64,000 bases of DNA, taken from contig JAUXTO010000042.1 of assembly GCA_030679255.1 (NCBI GenBank), forward strand, positions 44,714 through 108,713. The letters are read 5' to 3'. Positions 5,145 through 29,409 of this stretch are shown piece after piece. A program made the position numbers and the translations under genes. Under the pieces are notes generated by a model that was not told the DNA's origin, did no database searches, and saw only the letters and a list, made by a program, of their open reading frames with translations. This DNA is from Candidatus Gottesmanbacteria bacterium (GTDB lineage Bacteria > Patescibacteriota > Microgenomatia > UBA10105 > UBA927). Numbering within the stretch: the first letter of the stretch is position 1; the number at the start of each line of letters is the position of its first letter.

Positions 5145-5855
5145 TCATTCCCGCGTAGGCGGGAATCCAGTATTTGGGCACGTCTTTGCCTTCCGGAATC
5201 CCGCTTTCACCGCTTCTTTTTCCGTACAAAACCAACGGTCGCCGTGGTGGAGTTCAAGCTTGGTAGTCGCATACGTTTGACAGCCGGGGAAATGATAGGT
5301 GGGGATGCCGTTCGTCGTAACGTTTGCTTTTATGGAACATGATGGGTTTTTTGGATTTGTTTCTTGCGTACATAAGTTACTGAATATACCGACCTTCTTT
5401 TTACGGGCTTGATTTGTGGCATCCTTTAATTCCTGTAAGTCCAAATTTTCGCGGTCATTCATTTCCGCCCACCCGGAGGCGAGCATCGCCGTACTCACGA
5501 GCCCTTCATCCGTATACACGAGGCCCATCGAACGGCTGCCGATGTGATAGAGGACTTTCACATAGAGCGCTTTGTCGAGGATGAGTTTCTCGAGTTCTTT
5601 TTTTGCCTCTTCACTGCCACATTGTCCCATTTCGGGAGTGTTGATGCCCGAGAGCCGGATATACTGTTTCTCTTTGGTCTCAAACGTATCGCCGTCAAAG
5701 ACGCGGATGGCTGTATAGCTGGGGACGGGAACCGATTTTCCCTTTCCGAAGGAGAGCATTAATGTTGCACCAATAGCAACCGTTGCCGCAGCCACTCCGG
5801 TGATTTTCAGTTTGGAGAACCGTGGTTTGATTATGAGATTTACTCTTTCTTTCAC
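5145..5855 (-). CDS. membrane-anchored thermonuclease (SNase-like) family protein with Cys-containing C-terminal domain
   Basis: 236 aa; N-terminal TM helix; VFDGDTFE...IRLSGINTPE SNase motifs; C-terminal ...GIPTYHFPGCQTY...RWFCTEKEAVKAGFRKAK domain. Confidence 0.65.
   Translation of the reverse strand: MKERVNLIIKPRFSKLKITGVAAATVAIGATLMLSFGKGKSVPVPSYTAIRVFDGDTFETKEKQYIRLSGINTPEMGQCGSEEAKKELEKLILDKALYVKVLYHIGSRSMGLVYTDEGLVSTAMLASGWAEMNDRENLDLQELKDATNQARKKKVGIFSNLCTQETNPKNPSCSIKANVTTNGIPTYHFPGCQTYATTKLELHHGDRWFCTEKEAVKAGFRKAKTCPNTGFPPTRE
5148..5165. terminator. possible bidirectional hairpin between convergent yraN and nuclease genes (overlaps last codons of nuclease ORF)
   Basis: ttcccgc-gtag-gcgggaa perfect 7-bp stem. 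Confidence 0.25.
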
Positions 5856-5897
5856 ATTTATATCGTAGTATACGAGCGCTGCTTGCCCTATGAAGGT

Positions 5898-6335
5898 TTA
5901 CCTGTGTTTATTTATCTCGAAGTGTCTATTTGTTATTGCACGAACACAAAAATATTTTCCCGCTATAAAATAAAATATTCTTGCGGTAGATTGAATTTTA
6001 TGCTCCATCAGATCCACGTCGGGACTTAAGTTGCTATACAATTTTTTATATGCTCCGCTATTGACTACCGATAGAATATCAATATTATTCTGTTTTAGGG
6101 TAATTTTATTGTAACAGTTTCCAACAGTGCGAAGGTTCATTAAAGCTTTTCGACCGCCATGTTTTTCTAGGTCTAGTATTTCACACAAATCATCACGGTA
6201 ATATTTGAACGTGATAGCAAATTTTTCATATTCCGGATCTTTTGATTGAGATATTTGAGCAGCAGTTTCGGGTATATATTTGTTTTCCCTTATAGGTTTG
6301 AATTGGGGTATTGGAGATGAGCCGTTGTTATGCAT
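5898..6335 (-). CDS. hypothetical protein; putative toxin partner of Panacea-domain protein (C-terminal R-x5-H HEPN-like motif)
   Basis: 145 aa; 8-nt overlap with upstream DUF4065 gene; C-terminal ...CVRAITNRHFE resembles Rx4-6H. Confidence 0.4.
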   Translation of the reverse strand: MHNNGSSPIPQFKPIRENKYIPETAAQISQSKDPEYEKFAITFKYYRDDLCEILDLEKHGGRKALMNLRTVGNCYNKITLKQNNIDILSVVNSGAYKKLYSNLSPDVDLMEHKIQSTARIFYFIAGKYFCVRAITNRHFEINKHR

Positions 6336-6804
6336 GTTTCAGGCTCTTGAAGTATTTTTTCATTTCCTTCTTGGATATGATATTGGTTGAGGCATCTCCT
6401 GCGCTTAATCCTTCGCGAGCCAACTGCCAGGGTTCTTCATTGTGCGTAAGGGTTTCAAGATATTCAGCTTCAAATTTGCCATACACCTTCCAAACTTCAT
6501 TTAACAGATCATCCGTCTTTAAGGAAGCAATTTCTTTGGGATCAATGATCACATTAATATTTTCATATCCGAATTTACGATATTGATCGTATATACTCGG
6601 TATGGCAGGGCCGTGTACCCAAGCCTGTATATCCTCTTTGAAAAGAGGTCTATCTTTTAGAGCTAAATACCACGCTTGGGCGTAGTACAATAGTTTTTGA
6701 AGTTTTTTGTTTGTGATTGTTTTGCCTTCAGTCGAAGCTTTCCAAATGAAGAATTTAGCAACGAGTGAGGCGCTAAAGGGAGTTTTTATTATCATAAAAA
6801 TCAC
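6328..6804 (-). CDS. Panacea/DUF4065 (GepA/SocA-like) domain protein, putative antitoxin
   Basis: 158 aa; KLQKLLYYAQAWYLALKDRPLF...W..GP motif characteristic of DUF4065/Panacea domain. Confidence 0.6.
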   Translation of the reverse strand: MIFMIIKTPFSASLVAKFFIWKASTEGKTITNKKLQKLLYYAQAWYLALKDRPLFKEDIQAWVHGPAIPSIYDQYRKFGYENINVIIDPKEIASLKTDDLLNEVWKVYGKFEAEYLETLTHNEEPWQLAREGLSAGDASTNIISKKEMKKYFKSLKHA

Positions 6805-6923: not shown

Positions 6924-6998
6924 GGGTCGGTAGCTCAACGGTAGAGCAGTAGCCTTTTAAGCTATTGGTTCTGAGTTCGAATCTCAGCCGACTCACCA
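6924..6998 (+). tRNA. tRNA-Lys (anticodon UUU)
   Basis: Manual fold: acceptor GGGTCGG/CCGACTC (one G-U), D-arm GCTC-AACGGTA-GAGC, anticodon stem GTAGC/GCTAT loop CTTTTAA, T-arm CTGAGTTCGAATCTCAG, encoded CCA. Confidence 0.85.
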
Positions 6999-8515
6999 AC
7001 TTTGGCAGAGGGGGTACTATACTCCCTAGTCATCGCATATCCACGCCCTAATTCTGGTGTTCGAAATTTTATTCCTTCATAGACAAGTCCATTAGGGAAC
7101 ATCGAACACCCGATAGCCAGTTTGCCCTCAAGAGAGGCATCAATCCATACCCGTTTCATGTGAGAGAAGTAGTATTTGATAAAATTGACGCTGGTATCGA
7201 CATCAAGACGATCTATCTTTTTTTCACTAACAATACCCCGCTTCACTGCTAGCTGGGTTTCAAGATCATCTTTCATGGCGAGATATTCTTTGTCTGTATA
7301 TACACCTTTGGCGTTCTTGAGTCTCACTGTCCTCAACAATTCTTCAAGCTCTGCAATATCCCGGTGAACCTGATCCTCTGTATGGATGAGAAGGTTATTT
7401 TGAGCCTGCCACTTCTCGAGCACCATCTCTCCGAACCACTGCATATAGCCTTCGTCAAAAGTGATTCCATCAACAAGCTTGAGAAATGCTTCCTCTATAC
7501 CGTTCTCGCCGTCCTTACCATAGGAAATCACCTTATGTACGCCTCTTGTTGGACAGGCATAATACCCATATTTTTTGTATTTTCCCTTACTCCATGCGGA
7601 GGAGAGTTTTTTTCCACACTCACACCGGAGAATCCCCCTCAATGGGAAGTCCTCCCGTTGTTTCGCATATCGTTCTAGTTTTGATGGTCGCTTCCCTGTA
7701 AGTATCTCCCGGACACGGTAGAAGGTATCCAGGTCGATCATCGCCTCTTGCTGTCCGGTGGCTTCCCCATACTTCTGTGATACGAGAATACCTGCATAAA
7801 ACTTGTTAGAAAATACCCTGCTTGCTGATTGACGGAGAAACTTCTTGCACCGGCTGTCGTGTGTCAAGGTAAGCCCTAGTTTATTTATCTCTCTGGCTAC
7901 CTGAATCATGGAGAGTTTTTCCTGATCGACCCTATGCCACATAGTCTGAATGACTGGAAACCATGTCGGGTCTTTAACTGCAATGCTTTTTCCGTTCACT
8001 TTTTGCATTAGATATCCGATAGGAGGCTTTGAAGTTATATGTCCTTCGGTAAATCTTCTTTTAAGAGAGTTGGATACGTTCTGTGCCCTTTCCTCATTTT
8101 GATATTGATTGAATGATGCAAGGATCGTTTCGATCATTTTCTCTGCTGGTCTGTCGCCGGATGGTTCTGTAGTGGATATGAGACTGACGCCATGCTTTGC
8201 CATGAGTTCACGGATCACCAGGTAATCGAGTGTATTCCTATTAAGCCGTGAGAAGGCATAGACAATGATTGCGGATATATCGTTTTTGGGGTCTTTGACA
8301 AACGTGAGCATCTCCTGAAGTTGAGCCCTATCGGTCGTGGAAGCGCTAACTCCTTCTTCTCTGAATGTTTTGGCTACGATAAACCCCAATTGATCTGCCT
8401 TCTTTTGACACAGATCCTGCTGACTATCCAAAGAATAGCCATCAATTTGCTTATCACTGCTCACGCGGACATAAGTAACACAGTTTTTCATGCGAGTAGA
8501 TTTTGGGCAGCACAT
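6962..8515 (-). CDS. large serine recombinase (integrase); C-terminal tail overlaps tRNA-Lys 3' end; true start may be 8491 (MKNCVTYVRV)
   Basis: 517 aa; resolvase catalytic motif YVRVSSDKQ, recombinase domain, C-terminal CxxC...C zinc ribbon (CECGKK...YYAC). Confidence 0.85.
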   Translation of the reverse strand: MCCPKSTRMKNCVTYVRVSSDKQIDGYSLDSQQDLCQKKADQLGFIVAKTFREEGVSASTTDRAQLQEMLTFVKDPKNDISAIIVYAFSRLNRNTLDYLVIRELMAKHGVSLISTTEPSGDRPAEKMIETILASFNQYQNEERAQNVSNSLKRRFTEGHITSKPPIGYLMQKVNGKSIAVKDPTWFPVIQTMWHRVDQEKLSMIQVAREINKLGLTLTHDSRCKKFLRQSASRVFSNKFYAGILVSQKYGEATGQQEAMIDLDTFYRVREILTGKRPSKLERYAKQREDFPLRGILRCECGKKLSSAWSKGKYKKYGYYACPTRGVHKVISYGKDGENGIEEAFLKLVDGITFDEGYMQWFGEMVLEKWQAQNNLLIHTEDQVHRDIAELEELLRTVRLKNAKGVYTDKEYLAMKDDLETQLAVKRGIVSEKKIDRLDVDTSVNFIKYYFSHMKRVWIDASLEGKLAIGCSMFPNGLVYEGIKFRTPELGRGYAMTREYSTPSAKVGESAEIRTQNQ

Positions 8516-8660
8516 TTATTGTTGCGCCCCTTTAGTTTATTTTGCAATAGGTCAAGAGCAACATCGGCCAGCCGGGAGAATTTTTGGATCATCTCGGCTA
8601 CTTCTTGATCGGTCATATCTTTGATCTTATCTCCAAGTAGTTGTCTGGTGCGTTCAGTGG

Positions 8661-9023
8661 TCATGGTGTTTGTCTCAAAATAGTCCGAAACGTCCGGACA
8701 CTGTCCAATAGTGATCGTGGCGGGACACTTGCCTTGTTGCTAATAAACGCATTGACTTCTTCTTGTGCTATGTCTCCCGGGGAGAATTCCAGAGTTACCC
8801 TGCCGGTCATGTCCCGTTTCTGGGATATGAGCTTGAGTATTCCGAGCCCCGTTAGGTATAAAAGATAGGTAGCGAGATCCTGATCGCTTGATTTATAGGT
8901 GTCCATGTGTTCTCCTTTTGGCTGCCGGTGTAAAGAATGGCCACAATTTGAGTAATAATCCTTCTTCTCGAACGGTAAACCACTGGTGATAGATGGATTC
9001 ATACTCACGACTATTACGATCAA
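8661..9023 (-). CDS. hypothetical protein (element-encoded)
   Basis: 120-aa ORF in recombinase-primase operon; likely start at internal Met (MDTYK). Confidence 0.3.
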   Translation of the reverse strand: MIVIVVSMNPSITSGLPFEKKDYYSNCGHSLHRQPKGEHMDTYKSSDQDLATYLLYLTGLGILKLISQKRDMTGRVTLEFSPGDIAQEEVNAFISNKASVPPRSLLDSVRTFRTILRQTP

Positions 9024-9270
9024 GAAGCTGTAAGCGTGTTCGTAGCTCTACCTCATGTTTTTTTATGCTCTTGTGTGGATCATCCGGAGCAATCTCACTC
9101 AATTCCTGTAAACTGGCAGATCGAACCCGTTGTCTATGAAGGAGTTCCTTATCTATCTGCTGTAAATTGGTCTTGTCCAAGAAGGCGGGCTTTTCTGCTA
9201 TCCGTTCACGAAGTCTTGTAGCCATGGCTGATAATTTTTCATCTGGTAGTGCGTAGAGTTGTAGTTTCAT
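8893..9270 (-). CDS. hypothetical protein (element-encoded)
   Basis: 125-aa ORF, 4-nt overlap with primase stop. Confidence 0.35.
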   Translation of the reverse strand: MKLQLYALPDEKLSAMATRLRERIAEKPAFLDKTNLQQIDKELLHRQRVRSASLQELSEIAPDDPHKSIKKHEVELRTRLQLLDRNSREYESIYHQWFTVREEGLLLKLWPFFTPAAKRRTHGHL

Positions 9271-10859
9271 TCAATTACCTCCAAATTGTCTAAGAATTCG
9301 TCTTGTTCACTTTTCTTGTCATTGGTGGAGGTTGGTGGAACTTCGTAGGCACGAGGTGGAGCTTCGAGGCCTGTTTTACTAAACTCTCTATGCGAGAAGT
9401 CTCTAGAGGTAGTTTGTGGAAATGACCCTTGAACCTCCACCGTAGCCTCAAAATTGGTTGACGAACCTCCACCTGACAACGAAATTCCCCGGTAGAAATT
9501 GCCCTTTTTGCCCTCTAAGCGCTTGTAGCGTTCTCCTATCTTTTGGTAGAAGGTTTTGCTACCTAGCGATTCCTTTTTATCGTACCCCTGCTCAATGGCC
9601 CAAGCCTGGTATGCTTTCCACAAATCTGATGCTTTTGTTTCCACGGTCGGGAGCAATTCACACTTCTCGTTGATAAAGTCCGCCAACGTATCGCTTTCCT
9701 GTTGGTATTCGCTTGTCGCCTCAAGCACACACTGTGGAATAGGCTGCAAGCCCTCTTGTTGCCACAACAAGCAGCCTTGAATGAGCCAGTTGAGTATTCC
9801 CGATTGTTCTGTCTGGAGCTTTTGGGTCAGCTTGAGGTCTTGTTGGGCCGTGGTAAAAATACGGGTAAAGGGGATCAGTCGAACCCGGCGCCAGAATCCA
9901 AGAGAATCATCGCTCACAAGCGGTTTATGATTGACGAATAACCATATTTTGCAATGGGGCTCAAAGGTAAACCCCTCCGCATACAGGTAACGTGCCGTGA
10001 TTGCATCACCACCGGATATGTTTTTGAGCCTAGATTCATCTATCTTGCGTCCACCTAGCACCTCAGACGATACCACCATGCGCTTGAATTCCAGGGATGC
10101 TAGGTCGTTTGATGTGGTCGTTTGATTCCGTTGAAAGGTATGAAATGGTGCGTCGTGACTGTAATCTCCAAGTACATTCCGAAGTGTTGAAAAGAGGACG
10201 CTTTTACCGTTGCTACCGATCCCATAACAAAAGAACACGACCTGTTCCGATGTATCGCCCGTGAGGGTGTACCCAAGTGCCTTGTGAACAAAGCGAATAA
10301 GCTCCTCATTGCCCTCAAAGATTTCACCGATAAACTGTTCCCACCGTGGGCAGGTAGCAGCCGGATCATAAGATATATGCGTCGACATGGTGATCCGGTC
10401 TTCTTGTTTTCCTTCTCGGAACGATCCGTCATTGAGGTCAATAATCCCGTTTTCACAAGCGAGGAGATTTTTGTGCTGATCCCATTCCTGCCCGTTGTCT
10501 GCAATTGGAAGAAGATTTTTTGCGATTCCTGTTGACGCATCAAGACGCATCTTAGATTCACTTTGTATGGCCCATTTAGCTACTGCGGTACGCTTTGATA
10601 AATCTTCAATATCTTTTGCATCGCTATAGAGTTGTTTGACTGCCAGCACCGCAAATCGGTTAATCTCTCCGGAATCATCGGGACACCATCGGGGGGATTT
10701 CCAAAGCAGCCATCGCTTGCGGCGGTGATCGAAGCGCACCCTATCCCCAAACAGTTCAACGATCTTTTCAGCGTTAGACGTATCGGTGCATCGGATAGGT
10801 TCACTACTTGGGTTGATTAGCTTCATTGTTTTATCGATAATTTGGTCTGCTGTTTTCAT
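9267..10859 (-). CDS. D5/P4-family primase-helicase C-terminal (NTPase) protein
   Basis: 530 aa; Walker A FFCYGIGSNGKSVL typical of phage/plasmid primase P4-family C-terminal domain. Confidence 0.75.
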   Translation of the reverse strand: MKTADQIIDKTMKLINPSSEPIRCTDTSNAEKIVELFGDRVRFDHRRKRWLLWKSPRWCPDDSGEINRFAVLAVKQLYSDAKDIEDLSKRTAVAKWAIQSESKMRLDASTGIAKNLLPIADNGQEWDQHKNLLACENGIIDLNDGSFREGKQEDRITMSTHISYDPAATCPRWEQFIGEIFEGNEELIRFVHKALGYTLTGDTSEQVVFFCYGIGSNGKSVLFSTLRNVLGDYSHDAPFHTFQRNQTTTSNDLASLEFKRMVVSSEVLGGRKIDESRLKNISGGDAITARYLYAEGFTFEPHCKIWLFVNHKPLVSDDSLGFWRRVRLIPFTRIFTTAQQDLKLTQKLQTEQSGILNWLIQGCLLWQQEGLQPIPQCVLEATSEYQQESDTLADFINEKCELLPTVETKASDLWKAYQAWAIEQGYDKKESLGSKTFYQKIGERYKRLEGKKGNFYRGISLSGGGSSTNFEATVEVQGSFPQTTSRDFSHREFSKTGLEAPPRAYEVPPTSTNDKKSEQDEFLDNLEVIE

Positions 10860-11398
10860 ATCAATCTCCTCACCGCATCCGGAAAACTATACTTGTCGTG
10901 ATTCATCAAGTAGTCGATGGCTGACCCACCGTGAGCAGCACATCCAAAGCAGTGGTAGGAGTTGTCTTTGGTATAGAAGTAAAAAGACGCGGTTCGTTCT
11001 TCATGGAAGGGGCAGAGTGCCTTGAAGTTATGCCCGGAACGGATAAGGCGGCCGTCATAGAGTTCGTGGGTGGGATATTCCTTTGCCCTGTCTATCTGGT
11101 CTTGAGAGAGAAAATTAGATGGCTTTGATTCCTGTGGCAAACACCGAAGGTACAAATCGCACCAATAGGCCAACTCTGCTTTTAACTGATCCCGTTTCCG
11201 TTGTTCTGCAAACTGGATATACCACGGTGCGCGGTTGGTTCCCATCCTGTGGCCAAGATACTCTCGTTGGGCAGGTGTGAAACGGCGGGAGTTGTGTACC
11301 ATGGTGGTGTACTCCCAGACCTTCTCCTTGAAGATTGGCTTAATGTCGTCTTTGCCGAATATGTCTATAGTTTGGTTCATTGTCATAATACTCTCCAT
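10856..11398 (-). CDS. CHC2 zinc-finger primase N-terminal domain protein
   Basis: 180 aa; CPFHEERTASF...YHCFGCAAHG zinc-binding motif of DnaG-type primases; ATGA overlap with D5 ORF. Confidence 0.7.
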   Translation of the reverse strand: MESIMTMNQTIDIFGKDDIKPIFKEKVWEYTTMVHNSRRFTPAQREYLGHRMGTNRAPWYIQFAEQRKRDQLKAELAYWCDLYLRCLPQESKPSNFLSQDQIDRAKEYPTHELYDGRLIRSGHNFKALCPFHEERTASFYFYTKDNSYHCFGCAAHGGSAIDYLMNHDKYSFPDAVRRLI

Positions 11399-11573: not shown

Positions 11574-11876
11574 TCAGATTTTCTTTTTATCTTTACCCAT
11601 CATTTTAATTTTATCGTCGTGTATAGCAGTAAGTGACGGTGAACGCATAAACTTCATAATGTTTTCACCAAGAACAACATTCTTTCGTCCAACTTTAGAC
11701 GAAACTAGTTTTCCCGATTTCATAAGTTTATAAATAGAACGAACATCGACGTTCATCGTTTCAGCTACTTCGTCCGGTCCGTATACTTTAAGTGGCACTA
11801 TTGGTTTAATATCCATAATCGCAGTATACACCCCATTATCTCTAAATGCAATAGGGCAAAAAGCAATTGAATACAT
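11574..11876 (-). CDS. excisionase/AlpA-like HTH DNA-binding protein (start may be internal MDIKPIV at 11816)
   Basis: KVYGPDEVAETMNVDVRSIYKLMKSGKL helix-turn-helix resembling phage Xis/AlpA family. Confidence 0.45.
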   Translation of the reverse strand: MYSIAFCPIAFRDNGVYTAIMDIKPIVPLKVYGPDEVAETMNVDVRSIYKLMKSGKLVSSKVGRKNVVLGENIMKFMRSPSLTAIHDDKIKMMGKDKKKI

Positions 11877-12426: not shown

Positions 12427-12996
12427 TCAATTAGCAACAACAAGCGCTGTTACAACAGTTGGATGTTTATAAAATTTCCCCTCAAACGCATATACCCCTG
12501 CATCCCATTGCCCTTCGGCAAACAACACTTCTGCGTGTTTAGGGCTATTGATCCATGCGTGTACAATTGTTTCTGAATTAGTAGGACCTAGCGCAAGATT
12601 TTCCTTCATCCTGTCATACCGTAGCCGCAGCCTGGTAATAATGTTTTTCATTGTCGCACCGCTTCGCGTGGCTTCGTGGCTAAACTCGCTATTTTCAAGC
12701 ATATCTTTTGCCCGGAGATAGGCAACGTAAGATAGATCGTGGCTTTCAACAAAAGGAGGTAAATTATTCTCTTGCCTGGCTTGGTTTATGAGAGCAAACA
12801 TTTGTTTTACATCAACGGACGTCGTTGATGAAGGCGGTTCCGGGAGTACCGCAGAAGAAAAAACGTATTGAATGTCACCTTTAACCTCATATACAAGAAC
12901 GCCAAGCGCGCCAAAAGCCAGAAGAATTGCTGCAAGCGTAAGGAGTATCGGGAGTTTTAGGCTTATAGGACGCTTCATACATCTATTATACTCCAA
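12427..12996 (-). CDS. CAP/SCP (YkwD-like) domain protein with N-terminal signal anchor
   Basis: 189 aa; N-terminal TM; WINSPKHAEVLF...GVYAFEG resembles CAP-domain SPxHxxN(I/L)L motif. Confidence 0.55.
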   Translation of the reverse strand: MEYNRCMKRPISLKLPILLTLAAILLAFGALGVLVYEVKGDIQYVFSSAVLPEPPSSTTSVDVKQMFALINQARQENNLPPFVESHDLSYVAYLRAKDMLENSEFSHEATRSGATMKNIITRLRLRYDRMKENLALGPTNSETIVHAWINSPKHAEVLFAEGQWDAGVYAFEGKFYKHPTVVTALVVAN

Positions 12997-13544: not shown

Positions 13545-16500
13545 CTATAGTTCCTTCTTAATTTTGGGGTACTTTATAGAAGTGATAGTTTTTAGCTTTG
13601 GCACCTTATATTTCTTGAATTTGGCAAGTCGCTTGGGTTTCTTCAGAGTAAACTTTTTCAGTGCAATCATTTTGACCTTAGGAATCTTCTTGACGGTCAA
13701 CCTTGCTTTGGAGGTAGAAAGATCAGAAAGCACTTCTTTGACTTGGGATACATCAATAACACCGGCGGTCACCGCAGCACTGATCTTGTTCTTTTGTGTC
13801 GTGAGCGCTGACTTGTATTTTGAGAGCGCTTGTTTATCTACCTCATAATTTCCCACCATCTTTGGCTTTTGAGGGATATAAGAAACGTCTACAGAAGTCA
13901 CTGTGCCTGAAGGGGAAACATAGAAAAGCTTTGTCCCACTGCTTGCGGGTTGTCCTGTGAGGCCTACGGTTTGTCTCGCCTTGAGATCTTCTTTGGTTTC
14001 TGCTTGTTGATCCATAAAGTCACTATATGTTTTGGTTCCACCACGGACCAACTCGGATTGATTGGCTGATAGGGGCCGGGCATTACTATCAAAGTACGTC
14101 TGTGCTTGTGGAGTAGAGTATTGTCCGAACAACATGGACTTTACATAGTTGGGGAATGTTTGTTCTACTGGGAAACGGATATTTCCAGTCGGCGTTGTTG
14201 ATTCCCCCTTATTGTAGGATTGTAGACCTTCAACGGTTTTTCTTATCTGTACGCCACCAGGAAAAAACGCTGGTGCTACTTTGATGAGATTGCGCTTGCC
14301 TTCTTCTCTCGTTTGTTCTTCGCCAAAAAGCATTTGTCCTGTTGCTTGTCCCGCCTGCAACGATGGGGTAAGTCTAGGGTTTATTGGTAATAGGTCTAAC
14401 TTCATCCCGAATGCGTCCTTGAGTATTTTTGCCATAACGAGAGTTGCTCCGACGTAGCGCACCAATCCCGCAATATCCCTTTGTGCAACCTTAGTGAGCA
14501 GGAATTCTCCTTGCTTAATGTTGAACGACTGGAACTGAAGAAGTGTTTTGTTGATATCGCTTGATAGCGCAAGGGGTGTGTCGATACTGCCGAACACAAA
14601 TTGTGTTTTCCGAACGATACCCTTTGCGTACTCTATCGCCTGTTGTTCACTCATGTTTTGTGAAAGTGCCTTGGCTTTCGCGCCGTAATAAGCAGCACCA
14701 CGATTGATCTTTTCCGCTTTATCGAACAGGTAGAACAGGCCTTCGTCGAGCTTTGTGAGGATGTTTTTGTAGACGCCGATATTCCTATCCTGAATGAATG
14801 AATCTTTCAGCACTCCTACGCGTTCAAGTTCGTTTGATCCCCAGTTTCGGGCAAGCTTCAAGTAGCCTGTGGCTGTCCAACGTTCCCCAAGCTCTGCGTA
14901 AGTGTTGGCGCCCTGGGAAAGATTTCGAAGCGCCGAAGATACATTCAATCCCAGTGTCCCGCGATAGACTGTCTGCCTGATCGATTGAGATAGAGCCGTT
15001 ACTGGTCGGGGACCGAAGCGGTACCCGATAGGAGTGCTCTTGATGAAATTATCAATGAGGGTATCTATCTCCGTAGGACGAAGATTGATTCTGTCCGTGA
15101 GTTTTTGTAGATATTTATATTGTGACAGTTCGAGGCTTGGTGATTTTGCCTTTAATGCTTCCAGGGCAGGGTCAAGATTATATTTCCTCACTGCCCGTTT
15201 GGTATAAGCATCGAGAGCCGCCCATGTATCTTTGAGATAGTCAATCCTGTCGCTTTTACGCATGAGCAGGAACGGATCGTAGACCCCACCCGCGACCTTC
15301 TGGTCGATAAGTTTAGCGAGGGCAGGGTCAAACTCTCCCTCAACCGCGCCCTTGGTCCAGATGTGGGTGATGTAATTACTTATCTGTTTAGATGGTGGCA
15401 GTTTTAACTTCGTTGCCCAGTCCGCTAAATACCCTCTGATCTCCATTGCAACCCTGCCTTCAACGGGATTGAGTCCTACATTTTCCCCGTCCAAAGCTCT
15501 GAATATCCGTTCGTTGCTCTCAGGCGGAACCCGCTTCTGCCAGTCTGATATTCTCTTTATTTCATCCGGTAATTGCGTGAGATACGATTCGTACTGTGAA
15601 CGAAGATACTTCGCTTCATCTCCCAGCCCGATCTTTTGAAGTACCTGTTCGGGCGTTCTCAAATAATCAACAATGTTTACCTTGTTTTGTACGTTGGTGA
15701 ACGTGGGGTCAATGACGTTTTGTACACGTCCTATTGCTTGCGGGTCGTTGGCGGTAAATGCTTTTTTTACATATCTCTTGGCCTCCTCGACATTTGCGGC
15801 AACCATCTTGTCATATGAGGAATGATCGAGCGGGCTTATCCCGTCATCAAGGATTCGTTGTGCTTCTTTGGCGTCAATAAACCGTATCTGACGGGCGGTA
15901 AATCCACGACTTCCTAACTCTTGGGGATAGTTCAGAAGATTTGACAACCGTTCATTCGGAGTTTTAGGTACTTTAGAAAGTGCTTCATCAATGGTAAATA
16001 TTTTGTCCTCTATGGTACGAATAATACTCCCGACTTGGGTATCATTCTTCATAGTCTGAATGATTGCATAATCTTTTTTGTAGTCTCCTGAACCACCGAC
16101 TAAATTCACTAGTTCCTTGTTGAGTGTTGCCCGTAACGCTTGTAAGTCGTCTTTTGCTCCCGTCTTTATGAGCTTATCCGCAAACTCGTTGTACACGATT
16201 GACGCTTCTTCTGGTGTTTTGGTGAGGGAAAGACGACCACTAAGTGCGTTTTGAATCTCTGGTGTTTTGGTAAACCCCATGATCGCCAGTCGATCTGTCT
16301 CCTGGAGTTGTTTTCCTGCTGCTATTTCTTTTGGGGTAAATGTTGTTTGTCCTCTGTTTGCTTTTGTTAAGAACGATTGCTCCTCCGGTGAGTAAGAGCC
16401 TCCCGTGAGCAGATTCAAGCTAAACTTGGCTATATCCCCAGTCTTTACATCAAAGCCTTCTGGTTTAATAGGATTTCCTACACCCCATTTTAATGTGGGA

Positions 16501-16823
16501 AGCTTATTCAGTTGTGCGTCGATCTGTGGTTGATAGTCCGTCATCACTGCACGGGAGGGGATGATGTTACTCGAATATATTCCTTGTTTCTGAAGGCTTT
16601 GCTGAGAAATTGTATTTTGCTTTAATTGATTGGAAAAATTAGTTACTGCATCATTGACCCTGTTCACAAAGGGTTGTACCTGGGGCTGCAGTTGTTTCTG
16701 TACCCACGACGCTGGTGTTGGATTCTGCTGGATAAACGACTGAGCCTGACCGAACAGTTTACTTGCGGTATTTTGAATTTTCGTTGCTACTTGTTGACTT
16801 AGAGTGTCCCATAGATTAGCCAT
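13545..16823 (-). CDS. very large Q-rich hypothetical protein (virion structural-like); start set at MANLWDTLSQ, ORF track extends to 16991
   Basis: About 1090 aa; 8-nt overlap with stop of upstream gene; Q/N-rich N-terminus, K-rich C-terminus; no family recognised by eye. Confidence 0.5.
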   Translation of the reverse strand: MANLWDTLSQQVATKIQNTASKLFGQAQSFIQQNPTPASWVQKQLQPQVQPFVNRVNDAVTNFSNQLKQNTISQQSLQKQGIYSSNIIPSRAVMTDYQPQIDAQLNKLPTLKWGVGNPIKPEGFDVKTGDIAKFSLNLLTGGSYSPEEQSFLTKANRGQTTFTPKEIAAGKQLQETDRLAIMGFTKTPEIQNALSGRLSLTKTPEEASIVYNEFADKLIKTGAKDDLQALRATLNKELVNLVGGSGDYKKDYAIIQTMKNDTQVGSIIRTIEDKIFTIDEALSKVPKTPNERLSNLLNYPQELGSRGFTARQIRFIDAKEAQRILDDGISPLDHSSYDKMVAANVEEAKRYVKKAFTANDPQAIGRVQNVIDPTFTNVQNKVNIVDYLRTPEQVLQKIGLGDEAKYLRSQYESYLTQLPDEIKRISDWQKRVPPESNERIFRALDGENVGLNPVEGRVAMEIRGYLADWATKLKLPPSKQISNYITHIWTKGAVEGEFDPALAKLIDQKVAGGVYDPFLLMRKSDRIDYLKDTWAALDAYTKRAVRKYNLDPALEALKAKSPSLELSQYKYLQKLTDRINLRPTEIDTLIDNFIKSTPIGYRFGPRPVTALSQSIRQTVYRGTLGLNVSSALRNLSQGANTYAELGERWTATGYLKLARNWGSNELERVGVLKDSFIQDRNIGVYKNILTKLDEGLFYLFDKAEKINRGAAYYGAKAKALSQNMSEQQAIEYAKGIVRKTQFVFGSIDTPLALSSDINKTLLQFQSFNIKQGEFLLTKVAQRDIAGLVRYVGATLVMAKILKDAFGMKLDLLPINPRLTPSLQAGQATGQMLFGEEQTREEGKRNLIKVAPAFFPGGVQIRKTVEGLQSYNKGESTTPTGNIRFPVEQTFPNYVKSMLFGQYSTPQAQTYFDSNARPLSANQSELVRGGTKTYSDFMDQQAETKEDLKARQTVGLTGQPASSGTKLFYVSPSGTVTSVDVSYIPQKPKMVGNYEVDKQALSKYKSALTTQKNKISAAVTAGVIDVSQVKEVLSDLSTSKARLTVKKIPKVKMIALKKFTLKKPKRLAKFKKYKVPKLKTITSIKYPKIKKEL

Positions 16824-18078
16824 AGATCGGTTGACCGTTTTGATCGTATCCTTTGAATACTTTTCCGGATATTTGTCCTGTGTAATTTGGTGTGTTTTGT
16901 CCGTTTGATGAATTGATTGATAACGGTGATGCTGGAGTGGTTGTCGTTTGATTGAAGTAGTTATTGAGTGCTGATTGTGAGCCTTGACCACTCATTTGCA
17001 TCTGTCGGGCATAGGTATCTAACGCTGTTGCAGCCTGGCTTCGTTGAAGTTCTAGGGTTTGCTCAAATTGAATTTTCTGAGAGTTTATTTGAAACACTTC
17101 ATTCCGGAGAGTCTGTAAAGCAGAGAGAGAAGCTTGGGCTTTTGCAGATGCTATTTGTGACCTGCTTTGTGAAATAGAAAGAAGTTTGTTTTGAAAGTCA
17201 CTCTTTGCTTGAGAGAAAGCAGAATCCGTATCGTATTTTAGCTTCGTCTTAGCGGTAGAGTAGCCACGATCAAGATCATATTTTTGAGTGTCAATCTGTG
17301 CCATAGTGTCGCTATAGGATCGCTGTGTTAGTCCCATCTGACGTTGCTGTTCAACAGATGAAAGTTCACTGGCTGCTTCACCTGCGGACGTACTACCACC
17401 AAAGCGTTGCTGATATCCACGACGTAATTCGTCATACAGTCTTCGTGCTGCTGTAAGCGCATCTTCTTTTCGATACCCTGCGCTTGTTGCGTTGCGATCA
17501 AGAGTAGAAAGACCAGAGGTATTTTGATCATTGAGCATCTGAGTGTTCACATCGAATTGCCCTTGGATTGATTTTTGTACATCGGGATATTGAGCATTCA
17601 GAGTATTTTCAGCTTCTGTGAGATATTGAAACGAGGGGTTATACAGTGCATCAATCTGGGATTGAATATCGGGCTGGCCTTGGCCTTGTTGTGCCATGAG
17701 TTCTCGATAGCGGGATTCTTGTGAGGGGTTACGATCCATCTTAGATAATTGTTGAAGTTCTGAATCACTTGGGCCTGTGGGGGTTGTGTTCGCTCTTGTT
17801 GTTACTCCATTAACCTGACCCGTTCCTGTGTTATTGTTTCCACCGGTAACCATTCCTGAGGGCTTGGGTTGTATGTAAGGGGTGTCGTATGTTCCGGTAA
17901 CTGGTTTTCCTGCGATCGTGTTAGCTAGACCTGTGACGGGTCCAGCGCCTACGACATTAGGAGTCACCATGCTTCCAATATTTGCCACGGTTTGACCCAG
18001 TGCCTGACGTGCCTGCCCAGAACCAAATTGATTGACTGCAAGATCGTACCATCCACCTAAATTTTGAATTGCTCCCAT
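16816..18078 (-). CDS. Q/N/S/T-rich hypothetical protein (start at MGAIQNLGG with aggaga RBS)
   Basis: About 420 aa low-complexity protein; RBS AGGAGAA 5 nt upstream of ATG at 18078. Confidence 0.45.
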   Translation of the reverse strand: MGAIQNLGGWYDLAVNQFGSGQARQALGQTVANIGSMVTPNVVGAGPVTGLANTIAGKPVTGTYDTPYIQPKPSGMVTGGNNNTGTGQVNGVTTRANTTPTGPSDSELQQLSKMDRNPSQESRYRELMAQQGQGQPDIQSQIDALYNPSFQYLTEAENTLNAQYPDVQKSIQGQFDVNTQMLNDQNTSGLSTLDRNATSAGYRKEDALTAARRLYDELRRGYQQRFGGSTSAGEAASELSSVEQQRQMGLTQRSYSDTMAQIDTQKYDLDRGYSTAKTKLKYDTDSAFSQAKSDFQNKLLSISQSRSQIASAKAQASLSALQTLRNEVFQINSQKIQFEQTLELQRSQAATALDTYARQMQMSGQGSQSALNNYFNQTTTTPASPLSINSSNGQNTPNYTGQISGKVFKGYDQNGQPIYG

Positions 18079-18286
18079 ATGTTCTCCTGTGCCTAATCCT
18101 ATCCAACCGATATTTATGTTTACAATGACCAAAAATTAAGTCCTGGAATAACGGGAGGAAGTAAAATGAAAATTTGGCCTCTCCATTAAGATACACGCCT
18201 CCCGTTGTCTCAAATCTTAATCCTAAGGGGCGTTTTGGTCGTCACCTCACGCCCCATGATTATTAGTTGTTTTATAAAAGAACCAA

Positions 18287-18502
18287 TTACACACCTTTAG
18301 AATGAATCACTGAGCTTGCTTTTCCTTTGCCTGCTATGCCTGCTGTTTTCTGTAACTTGGAAGTCAATGCTCCTGTTTTGTTTGCATTTGAGACATACTT
18401 TGCATGTGCCAGCGACAGGTCACCCGCATGAACGTACTTAGCTTGTTTTGCTCCTACGTTTGCCGCTACGTCTTTACTCCATCCTTGTTTATCGATTGCC
18501 AT
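18287..18502 (-). CDS. small K/A-rich hypothetical protein
   Basis: 71-aa ORF in TerL-downstream block. Confidence 0.3.
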   Translation of the reverse strand: MAIDKQGWSKDVAANVGAKQAKYVHAGDLSLAHAKYVSNANKTGALTSKLQKTAGIAGKGKASSVIHSKGV

Positions 18503-18520
18503 ATAGTATTTTCACCTCCC

Positions 18521-18724
18521 TTATGTAAATCTTCTTTTACCTACGAAATCAATCAACATTTGAATGATCTCTTTTTTACTTAACTGCTCACCATTAGCGA
18601 TGATGAAAGTAAAAATCTCATCCTCTATGGTCCTTTCACCAATCTGTGCCTGTCCATGATTTGCCGTATTAGCCCACTGTGTGGCTACGGAATCCATGTG
18701 TTCTAAAACGTTATATGTTGTCAT
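18521..18724 (-). CDS. small hypothetical protein
   Basis: 67-aa ORF. Confidence 0.3.
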   Translation of the reverse strand: MTTYNVLEHMDSVATQWANTANHGQAQIGERTIEDEIFTFIIANGEQLSKKEIIQMLIDFVGKRRFT

Positions 18725-18748
18725 ATAGTTTTTCCTTTCTAAATGTTT

Positions 18749-18931
18749 TTATATTTTTGCTTTTAACACTCTCCATTCCATCTCGTCTCTTGTAAAAAGT
18801 TTCTTGTCGATATTTACCCGCATGGGTGGATCTCTCGGTTCACCTTCTGTTTTTCTAATGGCATCGTACTTCTTGATCCGTTCCATAATCTCAACATCAT
18901 TTGCCGTTGGTTCTGTTGTTTGTTTTGTCAT
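18749..18931 (-). CDS. small hypothetical protein
   Basis: 60-aa ORF. Confidence 0.25.
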   Translation of the reverse strand: MTKQTTEPTANDVEIMERIKKYDAIRKTEGEPRDPPMRVNIDKKLFTRDEMEWRVLKAKI

Positions 18932-18993: not shown

Positions 18994-20298
18994 TCATCCG
19001 ATTCTCCATTTCTTTTTTAGTTCTTTTGCTTTTTGTAGCGATTGGTATGAGTTTGTCTTTGGTGTCTGATCAAGATTCCAGCAGTAATATTCAAACGCTC
19101 TCATGGCGTGGGAGTATTGGTTGTGAATAGGTATCTCGTTGGATTGGTTTACCATGGTCTCTCGTTTTTGAGGGTAACAATAGTTCACAAGACAGTCTCG
19201 AAACCGAGAACAATTTGGATTTGAGGATGATACATATAGCCGTGACATAAAACGATGCGCATTCCGTATCTGCGTTGGAATATCAGGGATAAACGAAGTC
19301 TTTACATAGTGTCCGAGTCTTGCAAGTTCCTCTATTGGTGATTTGCCGGTTGTTAAGTCTCTTGCAGTTCCCGCAATATCACCTGCTTCAAAGGAAGGAA
19401 TTATATATGGCTTTGCACTGACAGCTTGGACAAAGTGGTCAATATTGGCATTTGAATCTTCGATATAGTCAATCAAGCGGATTTCTGAACCTCTTTGCTG
19501 AAGAAATAGAATAACCGTTGGATCATTCACGCCAAAGTCCCACGCTAAATGAAGAGGAAGCAAAGGATCATAGTCAAAAGGAATGTATCGTGTCTCCATG
19601 TCCCAGTCTTCATACACAACACCGTGAGGCTTTTCGTATTCTGCAAGAATTTCCTGTCGATAATATCCCATGCCCATTTGTTTATATTCAGTTATCAATG
19701 CTTGTAATTCCTGGGGATCAAGTTCAGGATTATCTGAAGAAGTAAAGTGAAAACACTTGAACAGACCGCTTTGTTCTAGTGAGTAGAGTTGTCTAAATCC
19801 TTTGGGAGTTCCTGCCATGATAGCGGGAGCTTTATTGGTTATAAGGTTTGGACGAATAACTGTTGGCCATATATTTGATTCCCAATCATCAATCTCATCA
19901 CCCGCGAACGCTCCCCAATTTGAAATACCACGAAGTGCCTCCGCATTTTCAACACCAAGTAGTTGTACTTTCCCACCATTAGGAAGTGATATAGAGAGTT
20001 CCGCCTCATTCTTTTTATAGGGAAGTTTTATCCCTGTGAAATGGTCAAGCATCCGTTGTACATGGTCTGACCACACGATGTTTTTACTCTGTACTCTGTT
20101 TGGTGAAACATACGGGCATGTGAGGTTCGTTTTAAGTGCCATTTCAAAAAGCCATGAGATAAGAAGGCTTGTTTTTCTCCATTTACGGCCTGCACGAAGT
20201 TGAATAAACCGAAAACCATCATCAAGAGCCTTCAATACTTCCTTTTGTCCTGAGTGTGGTTTTGTCGGATAGAATGTATTTACTTTTATTTCGCTCAT
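18994..20298 (-). CDS. terL: terminase large subunit
   Basis: 434 aa; FIQLRAGRKWRKTSLL Walker-A-like motif and overall layout of phage TerL (ATPase + nuclease). Confidence 0.75.
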   Translation of the reverse strand: MSEIKVNTFYPTKPHSGQKEVLKALDDGFRFIQLRAGRKWRKTSLLISWLFEMALKTNLTCPYVSPNRVQSKNIVWSDHVQRMLDHFTGIKLPYKKNEAELSISLPNGGKVQLLGVENAEALRGISNWGAFAGDEIDDWESNIWPTVIRPNLITNKAPAIMAGTPKGFRQLYSLEQSGLFKCFHFTSSDNPELDPQELQALITEYKQMGMGYYRQEILAEYEKPHGVVYEDWDMETRYIPFDYDPLLPLHLAWDFGVNDPTVILFLQQRGSEIRLIDYIEDSNANIDHFVQAVSAKPYIIPSFEAGDIAGTARDLTTGKSPIEELARLGHYVKTSFIPDIPTQIRNAHRFMSRLYVSSSNPNCSRFRDCLVNYCYPQKRETMVNQSNEIPIHNQYSHAMRAFEYYCWNLDQTPKTNSYQSLQKAKELKKKWRIG

Positions 20299-20299
20299 A

Positions 20300-20740
20300 T
20301 TATTCTCCCCTAGTTAGAACAACCTCAATGTTTGTTTGTTGCATCTGTGCTGGTATATCGGTTTCTATACCGAGGAGTTTTCCGAGTTTGTCGTGATAAT
20401 CTTTTCGTGTCTTATGATCCGCATACATCTCACCGGAGAATTGATCTCGTTTAGTAGCTTCTACCCCCTGACGAAGCTGATCAAAGTATTTCTCATGATC
20501 TAGACCATAGGCTTGCATGATCTCTTGTTTGTTAACTCGTGCTAACCATCGTGATCCCAAGACCCGTGAGGAGTGATCGTCAACAGAAGGGTGCAATTCC
20601 TTGTATGCTTTTGAGGCATTTAGTCCGCACTTCACCCACGTAAGATAAAAAAGCATCAGATCTAAGTTTCCATCAAACGCTTTCTCGAGATCCTTAATGT
20701 TAGGTGTTATTTTATTTTTCATTGGTATCTTTCTTCTCAA
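20300..20740 (-). CDS. terS: terminase small subunit-like HTH protein
   Basis: 146 aa immediately upstream of terL; CGLNASKAYKELHP resembles TerS N-terminal HTH. Confidence 0.5.
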   Translation of the reverse strand: MRRKIPMKNKITPNIKDLEKAFDGNLDLMLFYLTWVKCGLNASKAYKELHPSVDDHSSRVLGSRWLARVNKQEIMQAYGLDHEKYFDQLRQGVEATKRDQFSGEMYADHKTRKDYHDKLGKLLGIETDIPAQMQQTNIEVVLTRGE

Positions 20741-21316: not shown

Positions 21317-21595
21317 ATGAATACATTACAGACGGAATTCCACCAGAAGGTGAACGAGAGAAACCGGATCATCTTTGAGCGGTACAAAATGGTATCGGGG
21401 GATGTGCTTTCCATAGAATATGGTATCAGTCACCAACGGATTCATCAGATTGTTCGTAAAATAGAAAAAGAAACCGGTGTTAGCATGCGCCAGATTATCA
21501 GAGAGCGAAAGCGGGTTGCCGTGGTTGATGCGTGGAGGGCAAAGTCAATGATTTATAAGCATGACTGGGGGTCGGTACAGTATCAACCTGTTTAG
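21317..21595 (+). CDS. hypothetical HTH-like protein
   Basis: 92 aa; LSIEYGISHQRIHQIVRKIEKE resembles sigma-70 region-4-type HTH. Confidence 0.35.
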   Translation: MNTLQTEFHQKVNERNRIIFERYKMVSGDVLSIEYGISHQRIHQIVRKIEKETGVSMRQIIRERKRVAVVDAWRAKSMIYKHDWGSVQYQPV

Positions 21596-28464: not shown

Positions 28465-29409
28465 ATGCAGCGGTGGGGAAAAACTGCTGCAGGAAATATC
28501 CGCTGGTACTGCCCACGATGTCTTCATTCGCGCATTAGAAGACGGAAGGATGTTTCGATTCGATCGGCACATGCTCTGTTTGTCACATGGCTTACCGGTA
28601 CAGCATCGTTAGGAGAAATTGCTCGTTCAAAAAGGGTTTCTGTCAGAACACTTGAACGCCGATTTTCGTGTTTCTTGGAAAAAAAGAGCCCGGTTACATG
28701 GTCATCATCTGTCGATGTTCTTATCATCGACGGCCTCTATTTAGAACCCAGAGAGAACTGTGTTCTTATTGGAAAAACAAAAACAACAATCGTTCAGTGG
28801 TTGTTTGTCCAACGAGAAAACTATGGTTCATGGCGTCTCTTTTGCCAACATATTCCTGCCCCGCGCGTGGTCGTCTGTGACGGTCAACGAGGGATGCGGG
28901 CAGCTTTGCGTGACGCATGGCCGCATACTCTTGTCCAACGGTGCATGGTCCATATATTTCAGTTAGCAACAGCACGATTAACAAGGAGACCAAAAACTCC
29001 TGCAGGGCAAGACCTGCGTGTTTTGGTCCAGCAGCTTTTTGCTATCCATACAAGGAGACAGAAACGCCGATGGATCAGGAAGTACAGAAAATGGAGAAAA
29101 CGATATGACCATTTCCTCAAGGAACGAACAATTGGGCAGCAACCAGGCAAGAAACGGACGTGGTGGTATACCCATAAACGGATCCGGTCTGTGCGTACGC
29201 TCCTGGACAATGCACTCCCAGAATTATTTACCTACATCGGACACCCGGAAATCCCAAGGACCACGAACCACGTCGAGGGAGGAATCAATAGTAGGCTTTC
29301 AGAATTACTGTACCGTCATCGAGGAATATCCTTGGAGAAAAAGGAGGTGTTGGTTGCAACGTTCTTGGGGAGGAAACAGGGGCAAAAACCAACACGAAAT
29401 GTCTATTAG
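28465..29409 (+). CDS. IS1595-family-like DDE transposase
   Basis: 314 aa; N-terminal Zn-ribbon RWYCPRC; C-terminal TTNHVEGGINSRLSELL (TNxxEsxNxxlK) typical of IS1595/ISXO2-like transposases. Confidence 0.55.
   Translation: MQRWGKTAAGNIRWYCPRCLHSRIRRRKDVSIRSAHALFVTWLTGTASLGEIARSKRVSVRTLERRFSCFLEKKSPVTWSSSVDVLIIDGLYLEPRENCVLIGKTKTTIVQWLFVQRENYGSWRLFCQHIPAPRVVVCDGQRGMRAALRDAWPHTLVQRCMVHIFQLATARLTRRPKTPAGQDLRVLVQQLFAIHTRRQKRRWIRKYRKWRKRYDHFLKERTIGQQPGKKRTWWYTHKRIRSVRTLLDNALPELFTYIGHPEIPRTTNHVEGGINSRLSELLYRHRGISLEKKEVLVATFLGRKQGQKPTRNVY

Follow-up and report, generated by a model that had tools for sequence, protein, structure and literature searches.

A conserved gene pair as putative phage head cargo on a capsid-less integrative element of a Gottesmanbacteria bacterium

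We examined an element of ~14.7 kb that is integrated at a tRNA-Lys gene in a 64,000-nucleotide stretch of a Candidatus Gottesmanbacteria contig (JAUXTO010000042.1; the whole stretch is referred to here as the window). The element encodes a serine recombinase, replication proteins, a TerS-like open reading frame (ORF) and the large terminase subunit TerL, together with two adjacent unannotated genes, one for a protein of 1092 aa (P0001) and one for a coiled-coil protein of 420 aa (P0031). We consider it reasonably probable that this pair is conserved cargo from the head/packaging block of tailed phages associated with the Candidate Phyla Radiation (CPR), found here on a helper-dependent satellite. 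This interpretation builds on the gene structure, homology, predicted folds, synteny, the existence of circular relatives of 14-16 kb and the missing capsid genes, all of which were established directly. Loci that carry homologues are designated by L numbers.

Structure of the large protein and its coiled-coil partner

The large gene lies on the minus strand at 13545-16823 (ATG at 16823, stop at 13545) and overlaps by 8 nt (16816-16823) with the partner gene at 16816-18078, also on the minus strand. Mechanically called ORFs are longer at both loci, starting at a GTG at 16991 for the large gene (1148 aa) and reaching back to a TTG at 18132 for the partner (438 aa); the 420-aa start matches the database protein P0031. 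In NCBI, P0001 has an identical counterpart, a hypothetical protein encoded in a metagenome-assembled genome (MAG) of Candidatus Gottesmanbacteria. Because of this match and the homologues of both products (30 close homologues of P0001 and 104 of the 420-aa protein), we regard both genes as real. The initial annotation, made from the sequence alone, had described overlapping genes for ~1090 and ~420 aa behind TerL and three tiny ORFs and had pointed to a CPR host, and both statements are borne out by the confirmed lengths of 1092 and 420 aa and by the identity of P0001 to the Gottesmanbacteria protein. Its description of two giant, low-complexity, Q/N-rich proteins holds only in part. The 420-aa protein is Q/S/T/G-rich overall (Q 12.4%) but is not giant, and the large protein is biased only at aa 1-150 and 1000-1092, with low-entropy stretches (25-aa windows, <3.0) starting solely at residues 62-66 and 1038-1068.

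P0001 can be described as a putative polyvalent-type head cargo protein whose conserved helical module lies between a variable N-terminus and a basic tail. The Q-rich N-terminus (aa 1-150; 16374-16823, minus; 14.7% Q) shows no conservation in homologue alignments, and the predicted local distance difference test (pLDDT) score falls below 50 at residues 67-140. Across alignments of 27 to 31 homologues, residues 1-380 are variable, residues ~380-900 are strongly conserved and the C-terminus is again variable. The conserved core (aa 380-900; 14124-15686, minus) is all-alpha, of ordinary composition, and carries the family signature, with 17 invariant and about 90 near-invariant columns in these alignments. 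The K-rich tail (aa 1000-1092; 13548-13826, minus; 27% K), which is disordered from residue 1046 and contains the string ...KKPKRLAKFKKYKVPKLK... already quoted in the initial annotation, possibly binds DNA; a basic tail (≥25% K+R in the last 60 aa) is present in 85 of 171 family members. In the AlphaFold model P0001 is nearly all helix, with a mean pLDDT of 67.6, values of 80-94 in the core blocks and a disordered basic tail.

Searches with P0001 against Pfam returned no domain at E≤0.1 except a spurious coiled-coil match, and neither Pfam nor PHROG scans of the two proteins gave a portal, major capsid protein (MCP), MuF or tape-measure match. A profile of the large-protein family found nothing significant among PDB sequences. 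No PDB fold relative of the P0001 core was recovered, portals were absent among the PDB fold matches of P0001, and tblastn of the core against GenBank phages gave no match.

The first ~100 residues of the partner protein (G/T/N/P-rich) are disordered in its AlphaFold model and are followed by a three-helix coiled coil about 90 residues long, with helices at 136-229, 231-315 and 320-377 and a pLDDT of 90-95 across most of them (overall mean 73). The best-conserved motif of the partner family, AARRLYDELRRGYQQRFGG, is located at the first hairpin. None of the 104 homologues is annotated or has a Pfam domain, a profile of the family against PDB sequences gave nothing significant, and Foldseek of the model against PDB recovered generic coiled coils only. 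Judged by this model, the partner is not a portal, and it is not a capsid protein of HK97 type either. Of the 83 sequences examined, 36 have its gene directly upstream of the large one. In locus L003, a 378-aa protein is encoded upstream of a 2304-aa homologue of P0001 and has no BLASTP similarity to P0031; therefore the partner is not recognisably conserved across all branches of the family.

A large family related to polyvalent proteins

A profile of the large protein was run as a full HMMER scan over 1.84 billion cluster representatives and matched at least 5,780 of them, 1,325 at E≤1e-30. The module held in common measures about 520-600 aa, and the domains found N-terminal to it in family members include ART-PolyVal, HNH, ParB_N, ATLF, PBECR5, Zeta_toxin, RelA_SpoT and SLT_3. 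The core also forms the C-terminal end of distant relatives of 2,000-2,850 aa that bear LPD23, ART-PolyVal or MuF_C. Its matches to such proteins (P0139-P0153) range from E 1e-16 to 1e-39, and within the polyvalent proteins P0135-P0153 the module is placed in the C-terminal 600-700 aa. PHROG matches of P0001 likewise fall near the C-termini of phage proteins of 2,600-4,600 aa, and one PHROG annotated as "DarB-like antirestriction" matches the core weakly (E 0.0025).

Structural searches give a similar picture. Foldseek of the whole P0001 model against the viral models of BFVD returned 54 matches at E≤1e-3, and nearly all of the 50 matches listed are later segments (_2 to _4) of giant phage proteins, annotated as polyvalent, LPD, Zeta, MuF-C and, once, as "structural protein" (Pseudomonas phage KPP25). 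By both hidden Markov model (HMM) and BFVD searches, P0001 thus shares a conserved polyvalent-protein-associated module with bona fide polyvalent proteins. It is encoded on a mobile element with packaging genes, and its relatives are encoded beside virion genes. The large protein is best placed, as a reduced form, within the broad and already known class of polyvalent proteins. Its core module and the coiled-coil partner have neither a family model nor a solved structure. Remote homology searches and structure prediction had been proposed in the initial annotation as a check on its idea of divergent structural proteins. They yielded polyvalent C-terminal relatives and helical folds, but no portal or capsid fold.

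The 45 kb phage contig L003 encodes, directly after the 2304-aa homologue, a lysozyme-like protein with PG_binding_1 and SLT_3 domains (17044-18366), an arrangement that recalls podovirus ejection-protein modules.

Gene neighbourhoods in tailed phages

Full phages of 30-45 kb place the pair beside standard virion genes. The order in L013 is TerL, portal (phrog_1216, E 7e-17), two small ORFs, the coiled-coil gene, the large gene, a 296-aa ORF and the MCP (phrog_1328, E 1.4e-42), and that in L029 and L030 is TerL, coiled-coil gene, large gene, portal, a homologue of the 296-aa ORF and MCP. Among other loci, the pair is followed by a 676-aa ORF and an SU10-type MCP (SU10_MCP) in L081, and by TerS and TerL in L082, where it comes with ART-PolyVal. 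In every larger locus with identified neighbours (L013, L029, L030, L079, L081 and L082) the pair is found among head/packaging genes: the gene adjoins the portal upstream of the scaffold-position ORF and the MCP in L013, and it precedes portal or terminase genes in L029, L030 and L082. The pair is accordingly an accessory in full phages, at or near the slot that is usual for MuF-type minor head proteins.

Several structural identities were considered for the pair and were not supported. A portal is contradicted by the lack of a portal profile match, by the all-alpha models, by the absence of portals among PDB matches and by the separate portals of the relatives. An HK97-fold MCP finds no support in either MCP profiles or the models, which contain no HK97 fold, and the related phages have their own MCP (phrog_1328, SU10_MCP). 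The large protein has no match to the Pfam family Phage_Mu_F or to PHROG head-morphogenesis families, as a MuF minor head protein would. Against a tape measure, no tail gene was recognised in the element, and full phages with identified neighbours carry the pair in the head/packaging block.

Absence of capsid genes from the element

Every ORF of at least 95 aa in the element was listed and the plausible genes among them were scanned; all of them can be excluded as portal or capsid proteins. Queries with the portal, scaffold-position and MCP proteins of the related phages gave no tblastn match in either the 64 kb window or seven small elements related to this one, and no tail gene was recognised in the element in the ORF list or in the Pfam and PHROG scans. 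The observation that no recognisable portal, scaffold or capsid gene accompanies TerS and TerL is thus upheld by ORF scans and tblastn alike. Portal or MCP profile matches in other ORFs of the element, which would have turned the two proteins into tail-fibre or tape-measure proteins of an ordinary siphovirus, were not found on scanning. Since homologues of the pair coexist with a standard portal and MCP elsewhere, the pair is no capsid replacement and the capsid genes are simply absent. This bears on the two explanations offered at the outset. For a fusion of portal, MuF and tape-measure type, the MuF-like, minor-head flavour survives, but the models are all-helical with no HK97 or portal fold, and no portal, capsid or tape-measure fusion was seen. 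As for packaging with unconventional components, the pair does not substitute for a capsid, and packaging in the particles of a helper would be the better description.

Small capsid-less relatives

The element has a series of relatives of similar size. Three of them are independent circular contigs, as judged from their identical contig ends: L002 (15,679 bp), L011 (14,410 bp) and L078 (15,737 bp). Linear small elements are L001, L005 and L077, and integrated copies include L067 in another Gottesmanbacteria MAG. Each of these carries the pair together with a serine integrase; among them, L011, L077 and L078 have recognised replication genes (primase or helicase). The small elements contain no unassigned ORF of portal length, and tblastn finds no portal or MCP gene in them. 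Their terminases differ: the TerL of the window is of one type with those of L001 and L002, that of L077 is of the Terminase_3 type, and L078 has none. Because terminase content varies in this way, the pair is the only virion-type module common to all of the small elements. Five further contigs of 14-16 kb (L076, L079, L080, L081 and L082) were considered as complete small elements, proved to be fragments of larger phages and were left uncounted.

Further features of these loci were noted. A separate subgroup of the small elements, comprising L005, L011 (11316-12738) and L018, has TerL split into an ATPase ORF (about 265 aa) and a nuclease ORF (about 213 aa). In L078 the pair is accompanied by genes for a PrimPol-DnaB protein and a serine integrase and by a 199-aa ORF that looks like TerS and has no Pfam match; TerL is missing altogether. 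Contigs with close homologues are titled Gammaproteobacteria or Pseudomonadales in several cases among L060, L061, L063, L064, L066, L068, L069 and L075, and the L060 homologue is 78% identical to the protein of the window; others bear the names Gottesmanbacteria, Microgenomates, Saccharibacteria or Peribacteria. Mis-binning of contigs from mobile elements may explain the proteobacterial titles.

Other genes of the integrated element

The left junction of the element is a tRNA-Lys(TTT) gene predicted by ARAGORN (6924-6998, plus), within which falls, on the opposite strand, the stop codon of the serine integrase. This large serine recombinase of 517 aa (6962-8515, minus) has Resolvase, Recombinase and Zn_ribbon_recom domains. 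Directly upstream of it is a conserved 58-aa ORF (family F3; 8488-8664, minus), which also precedes the integrase in L002, L005 and L011 and may encode a recombination directionality factor. The replication module (9267-11398) consists of a D5_N primase-helicase of 530 aa (9267-10859, minus) and a primase zinc-finger protein of 180 aa (10856-11398, minus). Beyond it are genes for an excisionase-type DNA-binding protein of 100 aa with an HTH_17 domain (11574-11876, minus; PF12728, E 3e-8) and a CAP/SCP-domain protein of 189 aa (12427-12996, minus; PF00188, E 2e-9; phrog_16914, E 1.3e-16). The CAP/SCP gene adjoins the pair and its product has a hydrophobic N-terminus; several phage and genomic loci (L012, L019, L063, L071 and L074) have CAP homologues close to the large gene or the pair.

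On the other side of the pair, three tiny ORFs of 71, 67 and 60 aa (18287-18931, minus) separate it from TerL, and phmmer found no homologues of them in loci L001-L058. TerL itself (434 aa; 18994-20298, minus) is divergent, with a PHROG match (phrog_2, E 2.2e-18) and no Pfam match, and is 71-77% identical to the TerL proteins of L001 and L002 and 32% identical to that of the full phage L013. Its Walker A motif reads RAGRKWRKT, as in L001 (1836-3167) and L002 (2289-3602), versus AGRRAGKS in L013, and its C-terminal nuclease motif reads HAMRAFEY or HAMRAYEY in these three elements versus HAMDALRY and HALDALRY in L013 and L030. In TerL of the window type, Arg appears to have taken the place of an acidic metal ligand.

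Abutting TerL is an ORF of 146 aa (20300-20740, minus) with no significant Pfam or PHROG family match and a homologue in the Gottesmanbacteria locus L067 (E 7e-88); its position and weak matches suggest that it is TerS. A 99-aa ORF stands between this candidate and a gene for a Mor-like transcription activator of 92 aa (21317-21595, plus; PF08765, E 3e-4; phrog_532, E 6e-4), with which the element probably ends on the right. From 21731 onward the genes are host-like (serine hydrolase, F420 ligase). The right boundary is approximate, being set by gene content only, and blastn against relatives did not refine the boundaries.

Outside the element, to the left of the tRNA gene, lie a SocA/Panacea antitoxin-domain protein (6328-6804, minus), an overlapping 145-aa ORF (5898-6335, minus) and a staphylococcal-nuclease-domain protein (5145-5855, minus); together, the genes at 5145-6804 may represent a toxin-antitoxin or defence islet. 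A 314-aa ORF for a transposase of the Mutator family (MULE) is located at 28465-29409 (plus).

Comparison with known systems

Polyvalent proteins (Iyer, Burroughs, Anand, de Souza and Aravind 2017; PMC5512222) are the closest known relatives of the large protein. Delivery by the virion, as effectors, is known or predicted for polyvalent proteins and for MuF-fused proteins (PMC5512222). The core of P0001 is HMM-homologous to the C-terminal part of polyvalent proteins, its fold matches their terminal segments, and diverse effector domains are fused to it in family members. P0001 differs from them in having no effector domain and no Pfam LPD match, its core lies outside all Pfam models, and the effectors of its family stand N-terminal to the conserved module.

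MuF proteins such as SPP1 gp7, and the toxins fused to MuF, offer a second comparison. As in those systems, the gene in L013 is positioned beside the portal, upstream of the scaffold-position ORF and the MCP, and a conserved module associated with the head carries fused toxin and effector domains (PBECR, RelA/SpoT, Zeta, ART), with MuF_C present in distant relatives. On the other hand, there is no Phage_Mu_F match, the module is C-terminal and far larger, and in L029, L030 and L082 the pair precedes portal or terminase genes. Internal core and ejection proteins of podoviruses (T7 gp14-16; P22 gp7, gp16 and gp20) and N4 gp50 are also large, mostly helical proteins that travel inside the head and leave it together with the DNA on ejection. 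Some relatives of P0001 have an SLT domain, as does T7 gp16, and encapsidation of the N4 virion RNA polymerase gp50 requires its C-terminal region (PMC5512222).

The Dar system of phage P1 (DarB with DarA and Hdf; PMC12810830, PMC9024508) similarly combines a large effector with smaller partners, although packaging of the pair described here is inferred. DarA and Hdf line the inner surface of the capsid and are tied to head morphogenesis (PMC12810830); these partners also touch the DNA and exit with it. Unlike them, the coiled-coil protein has no detectable sequence or fold homology to solved chains, and the large protein has no methyltransferase or helicase domains, so that the analogy is functional only.

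At the level of the whole element, the obvious comparison is with phage satellites, namely phage-inducible chromosomal islands (PICI, including SaPI), capsid-forming PICI (cf-PICI), PICMI and P4 (de Sousa et al. 2023, PMC10085698; PMC10803314). The element resembles them in its size of about 15 kb, its integrase, its own replication genes, its packaging genes (TerS, with or without TerL) and its lack of tail and capsid genes. In the broad sense it has the general make-up of a satellite: it is small and integrative, has integrase and replication genes and is without capsid or tail genes. It differs in having a serine rather than a tyrosine integrase and a CPR host, and no helper is known. Of the genes that might redirect helper packaging, TerL is clear and TerS is placed by position and weak matches only. 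TerL without capsid genes also sets it apart from PICI, which have TerS only, and from cf-PICI, which have a full head module: none of the MCP, portal, protease and head-tail connector genes that characterise cf-PICI is present in the element. Its hallmark would be the head-cargo pair, as opposed to capsid-size redirection genes of the Sid/Cpm type.

Proposed function and alternative explanations

The proposed mechanism divides the large protein into three parts. The N-terminus is variable and holds toxin, anti-restriction or lytic domains in relatives, the conserved core would mediate entry of the protein into the procapsid and its exit together with the DNA, and the basic tail would touch the DNA. 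The coiled-coil protein would serve as an adaptor or lining protein that loads or holds the large protein, a role resembling that of DarA/Hdf for DarB in phage P1. The element, bringing its own cargo pair, would be packaged in particles built by a related helper phage. We infer virion incorporation, ejection, interaction of the two proteins and helper dependence from the directly established features listed at the outset; the satellite component of the proposal is based on the small, integrative and self-replicating nature of the element, with packaging genes present and the capsid absent.

The homology of the pair and TerL to full phages that have portal and MCP beside the pair could also mean that a prophage of the L013/L029 type is decaying here and has lost its genes from portal to tail, with the pair as leftovers that have no current role. 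The motif changes in TerL (HAMD to HAMR, and G to R in Walker A) could be read as decay. We regard this explanation as unlikely: all ORFs are intact, P0001 retains every invariant core residue, and diverged copies (41-78% amino-acid identity), three of them circular and several integrated, have this reduced gene set in common. The motif changes are also found in L001 and L002 and are therefore lineage traits and not random decay. The circular genomes of ~15 kb with TerS/TerL and no recognisable capsid gene might alternatively belong to an autonomous minimal virus whose particle is made of these two proteins and dispenses with a portal and an HK97-type capsid. In tailed-phage packaging, the TerL motor requires a portal vertex. 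The models are helical and contain no jelly-roll, HK97 or portal fold, homologues of the pair lie beside ordinary portal and MCP genes in phages of 30-45 kb, and the circular element L078 is without TerL, all of which makes such a virus extremely improbable.

We see little chance that the large protein is a fused portal/MuF/tape-measure protein, or a tape-measure or tail-fibre protein of an ordinary siphovirus. It is long and helical, one relative has SLT_3 as many tape-measure and ejection proteins do, and the L013 gene occupies the MuF slot just downstream of the portal; however, Pfam and PHROG gave no portal, MuF or tape-measure match, no portal fold came from PDB, the related phages have separate portals, and the gene belongs to the head/packaging block and not to the region between the tail chaperone and the distal tail genes. 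A role outside the virion, as an anti-defence/toxin cassette or as the transfer protein of a plasmid-like or mobilisable element, seems similarly improbable. Polyvalent proteins do occur on conjugative elements as well as phages (PMC5512222), and the small elements are circular and encode replication functions of their own, one of them lacking TerL. Against such a role, no relaxase, type IV secretion system or coupling-protein gene was seen in any small element, most of them have terminase genes, and in all larger loci with identified neighbours the pair is among head/packaging genes.

Several observations weigh against the proposal of a head-cargo pair on a satellite. Polyvalent proteins have at least two distinct effector/enzymatic domains, which are found in relatives of P0001 but not in P0001 itself; having no recognisable effector domain, P0001 is therefore strictly not polyvalent. 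One weak fold match, to a "structural" protein, is the sole virion link of either protein, and the evidence for their interaction is the adjacency of their genes. The motifs of window-type TerL suggest that its nuclease activity may be altered and that the enzyme may not be fully active. A search of the window for a tRNA-derived att direct repeat found none, leaving the right end unmarked, although the missing tRNA-derived repeat fits a serine integrase. No helper phage was found in the 64 kb window by tblastn, and circular assembly fits a plasmid-like life style as well as a satellite.

Implications

In the literature searches made, no phage satellite of CPR/Patescibacteria came up. More tentatively than the cargo proposal itself, and with somewhat less than even confidence, we suggest that the elements of 14-16 kb are the first such satellites and a new kind whose hallmark is the cargo pair. 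With internal head proteins of their own, they might reprogramme the helper procapsid in size or cargo, by analogy with the link of P1 DarA/Hdf to head-size control, and arm their own DNA against host defences.

The analysis provides context and a testable role for the coiled-coil partner and for the family of the large protein, which is very large (at least 5,780 clusters) and had no annotation. It also suggests that CPR bacteria harbour a family of integrative elements with terminase genes and no capsid genes. If these elements are satellites, the known host range and gene repertoire of satellites would be widened, and the satellite and helper versions of the pair would offer a natural comparison for the loading and function of internal head proteins.

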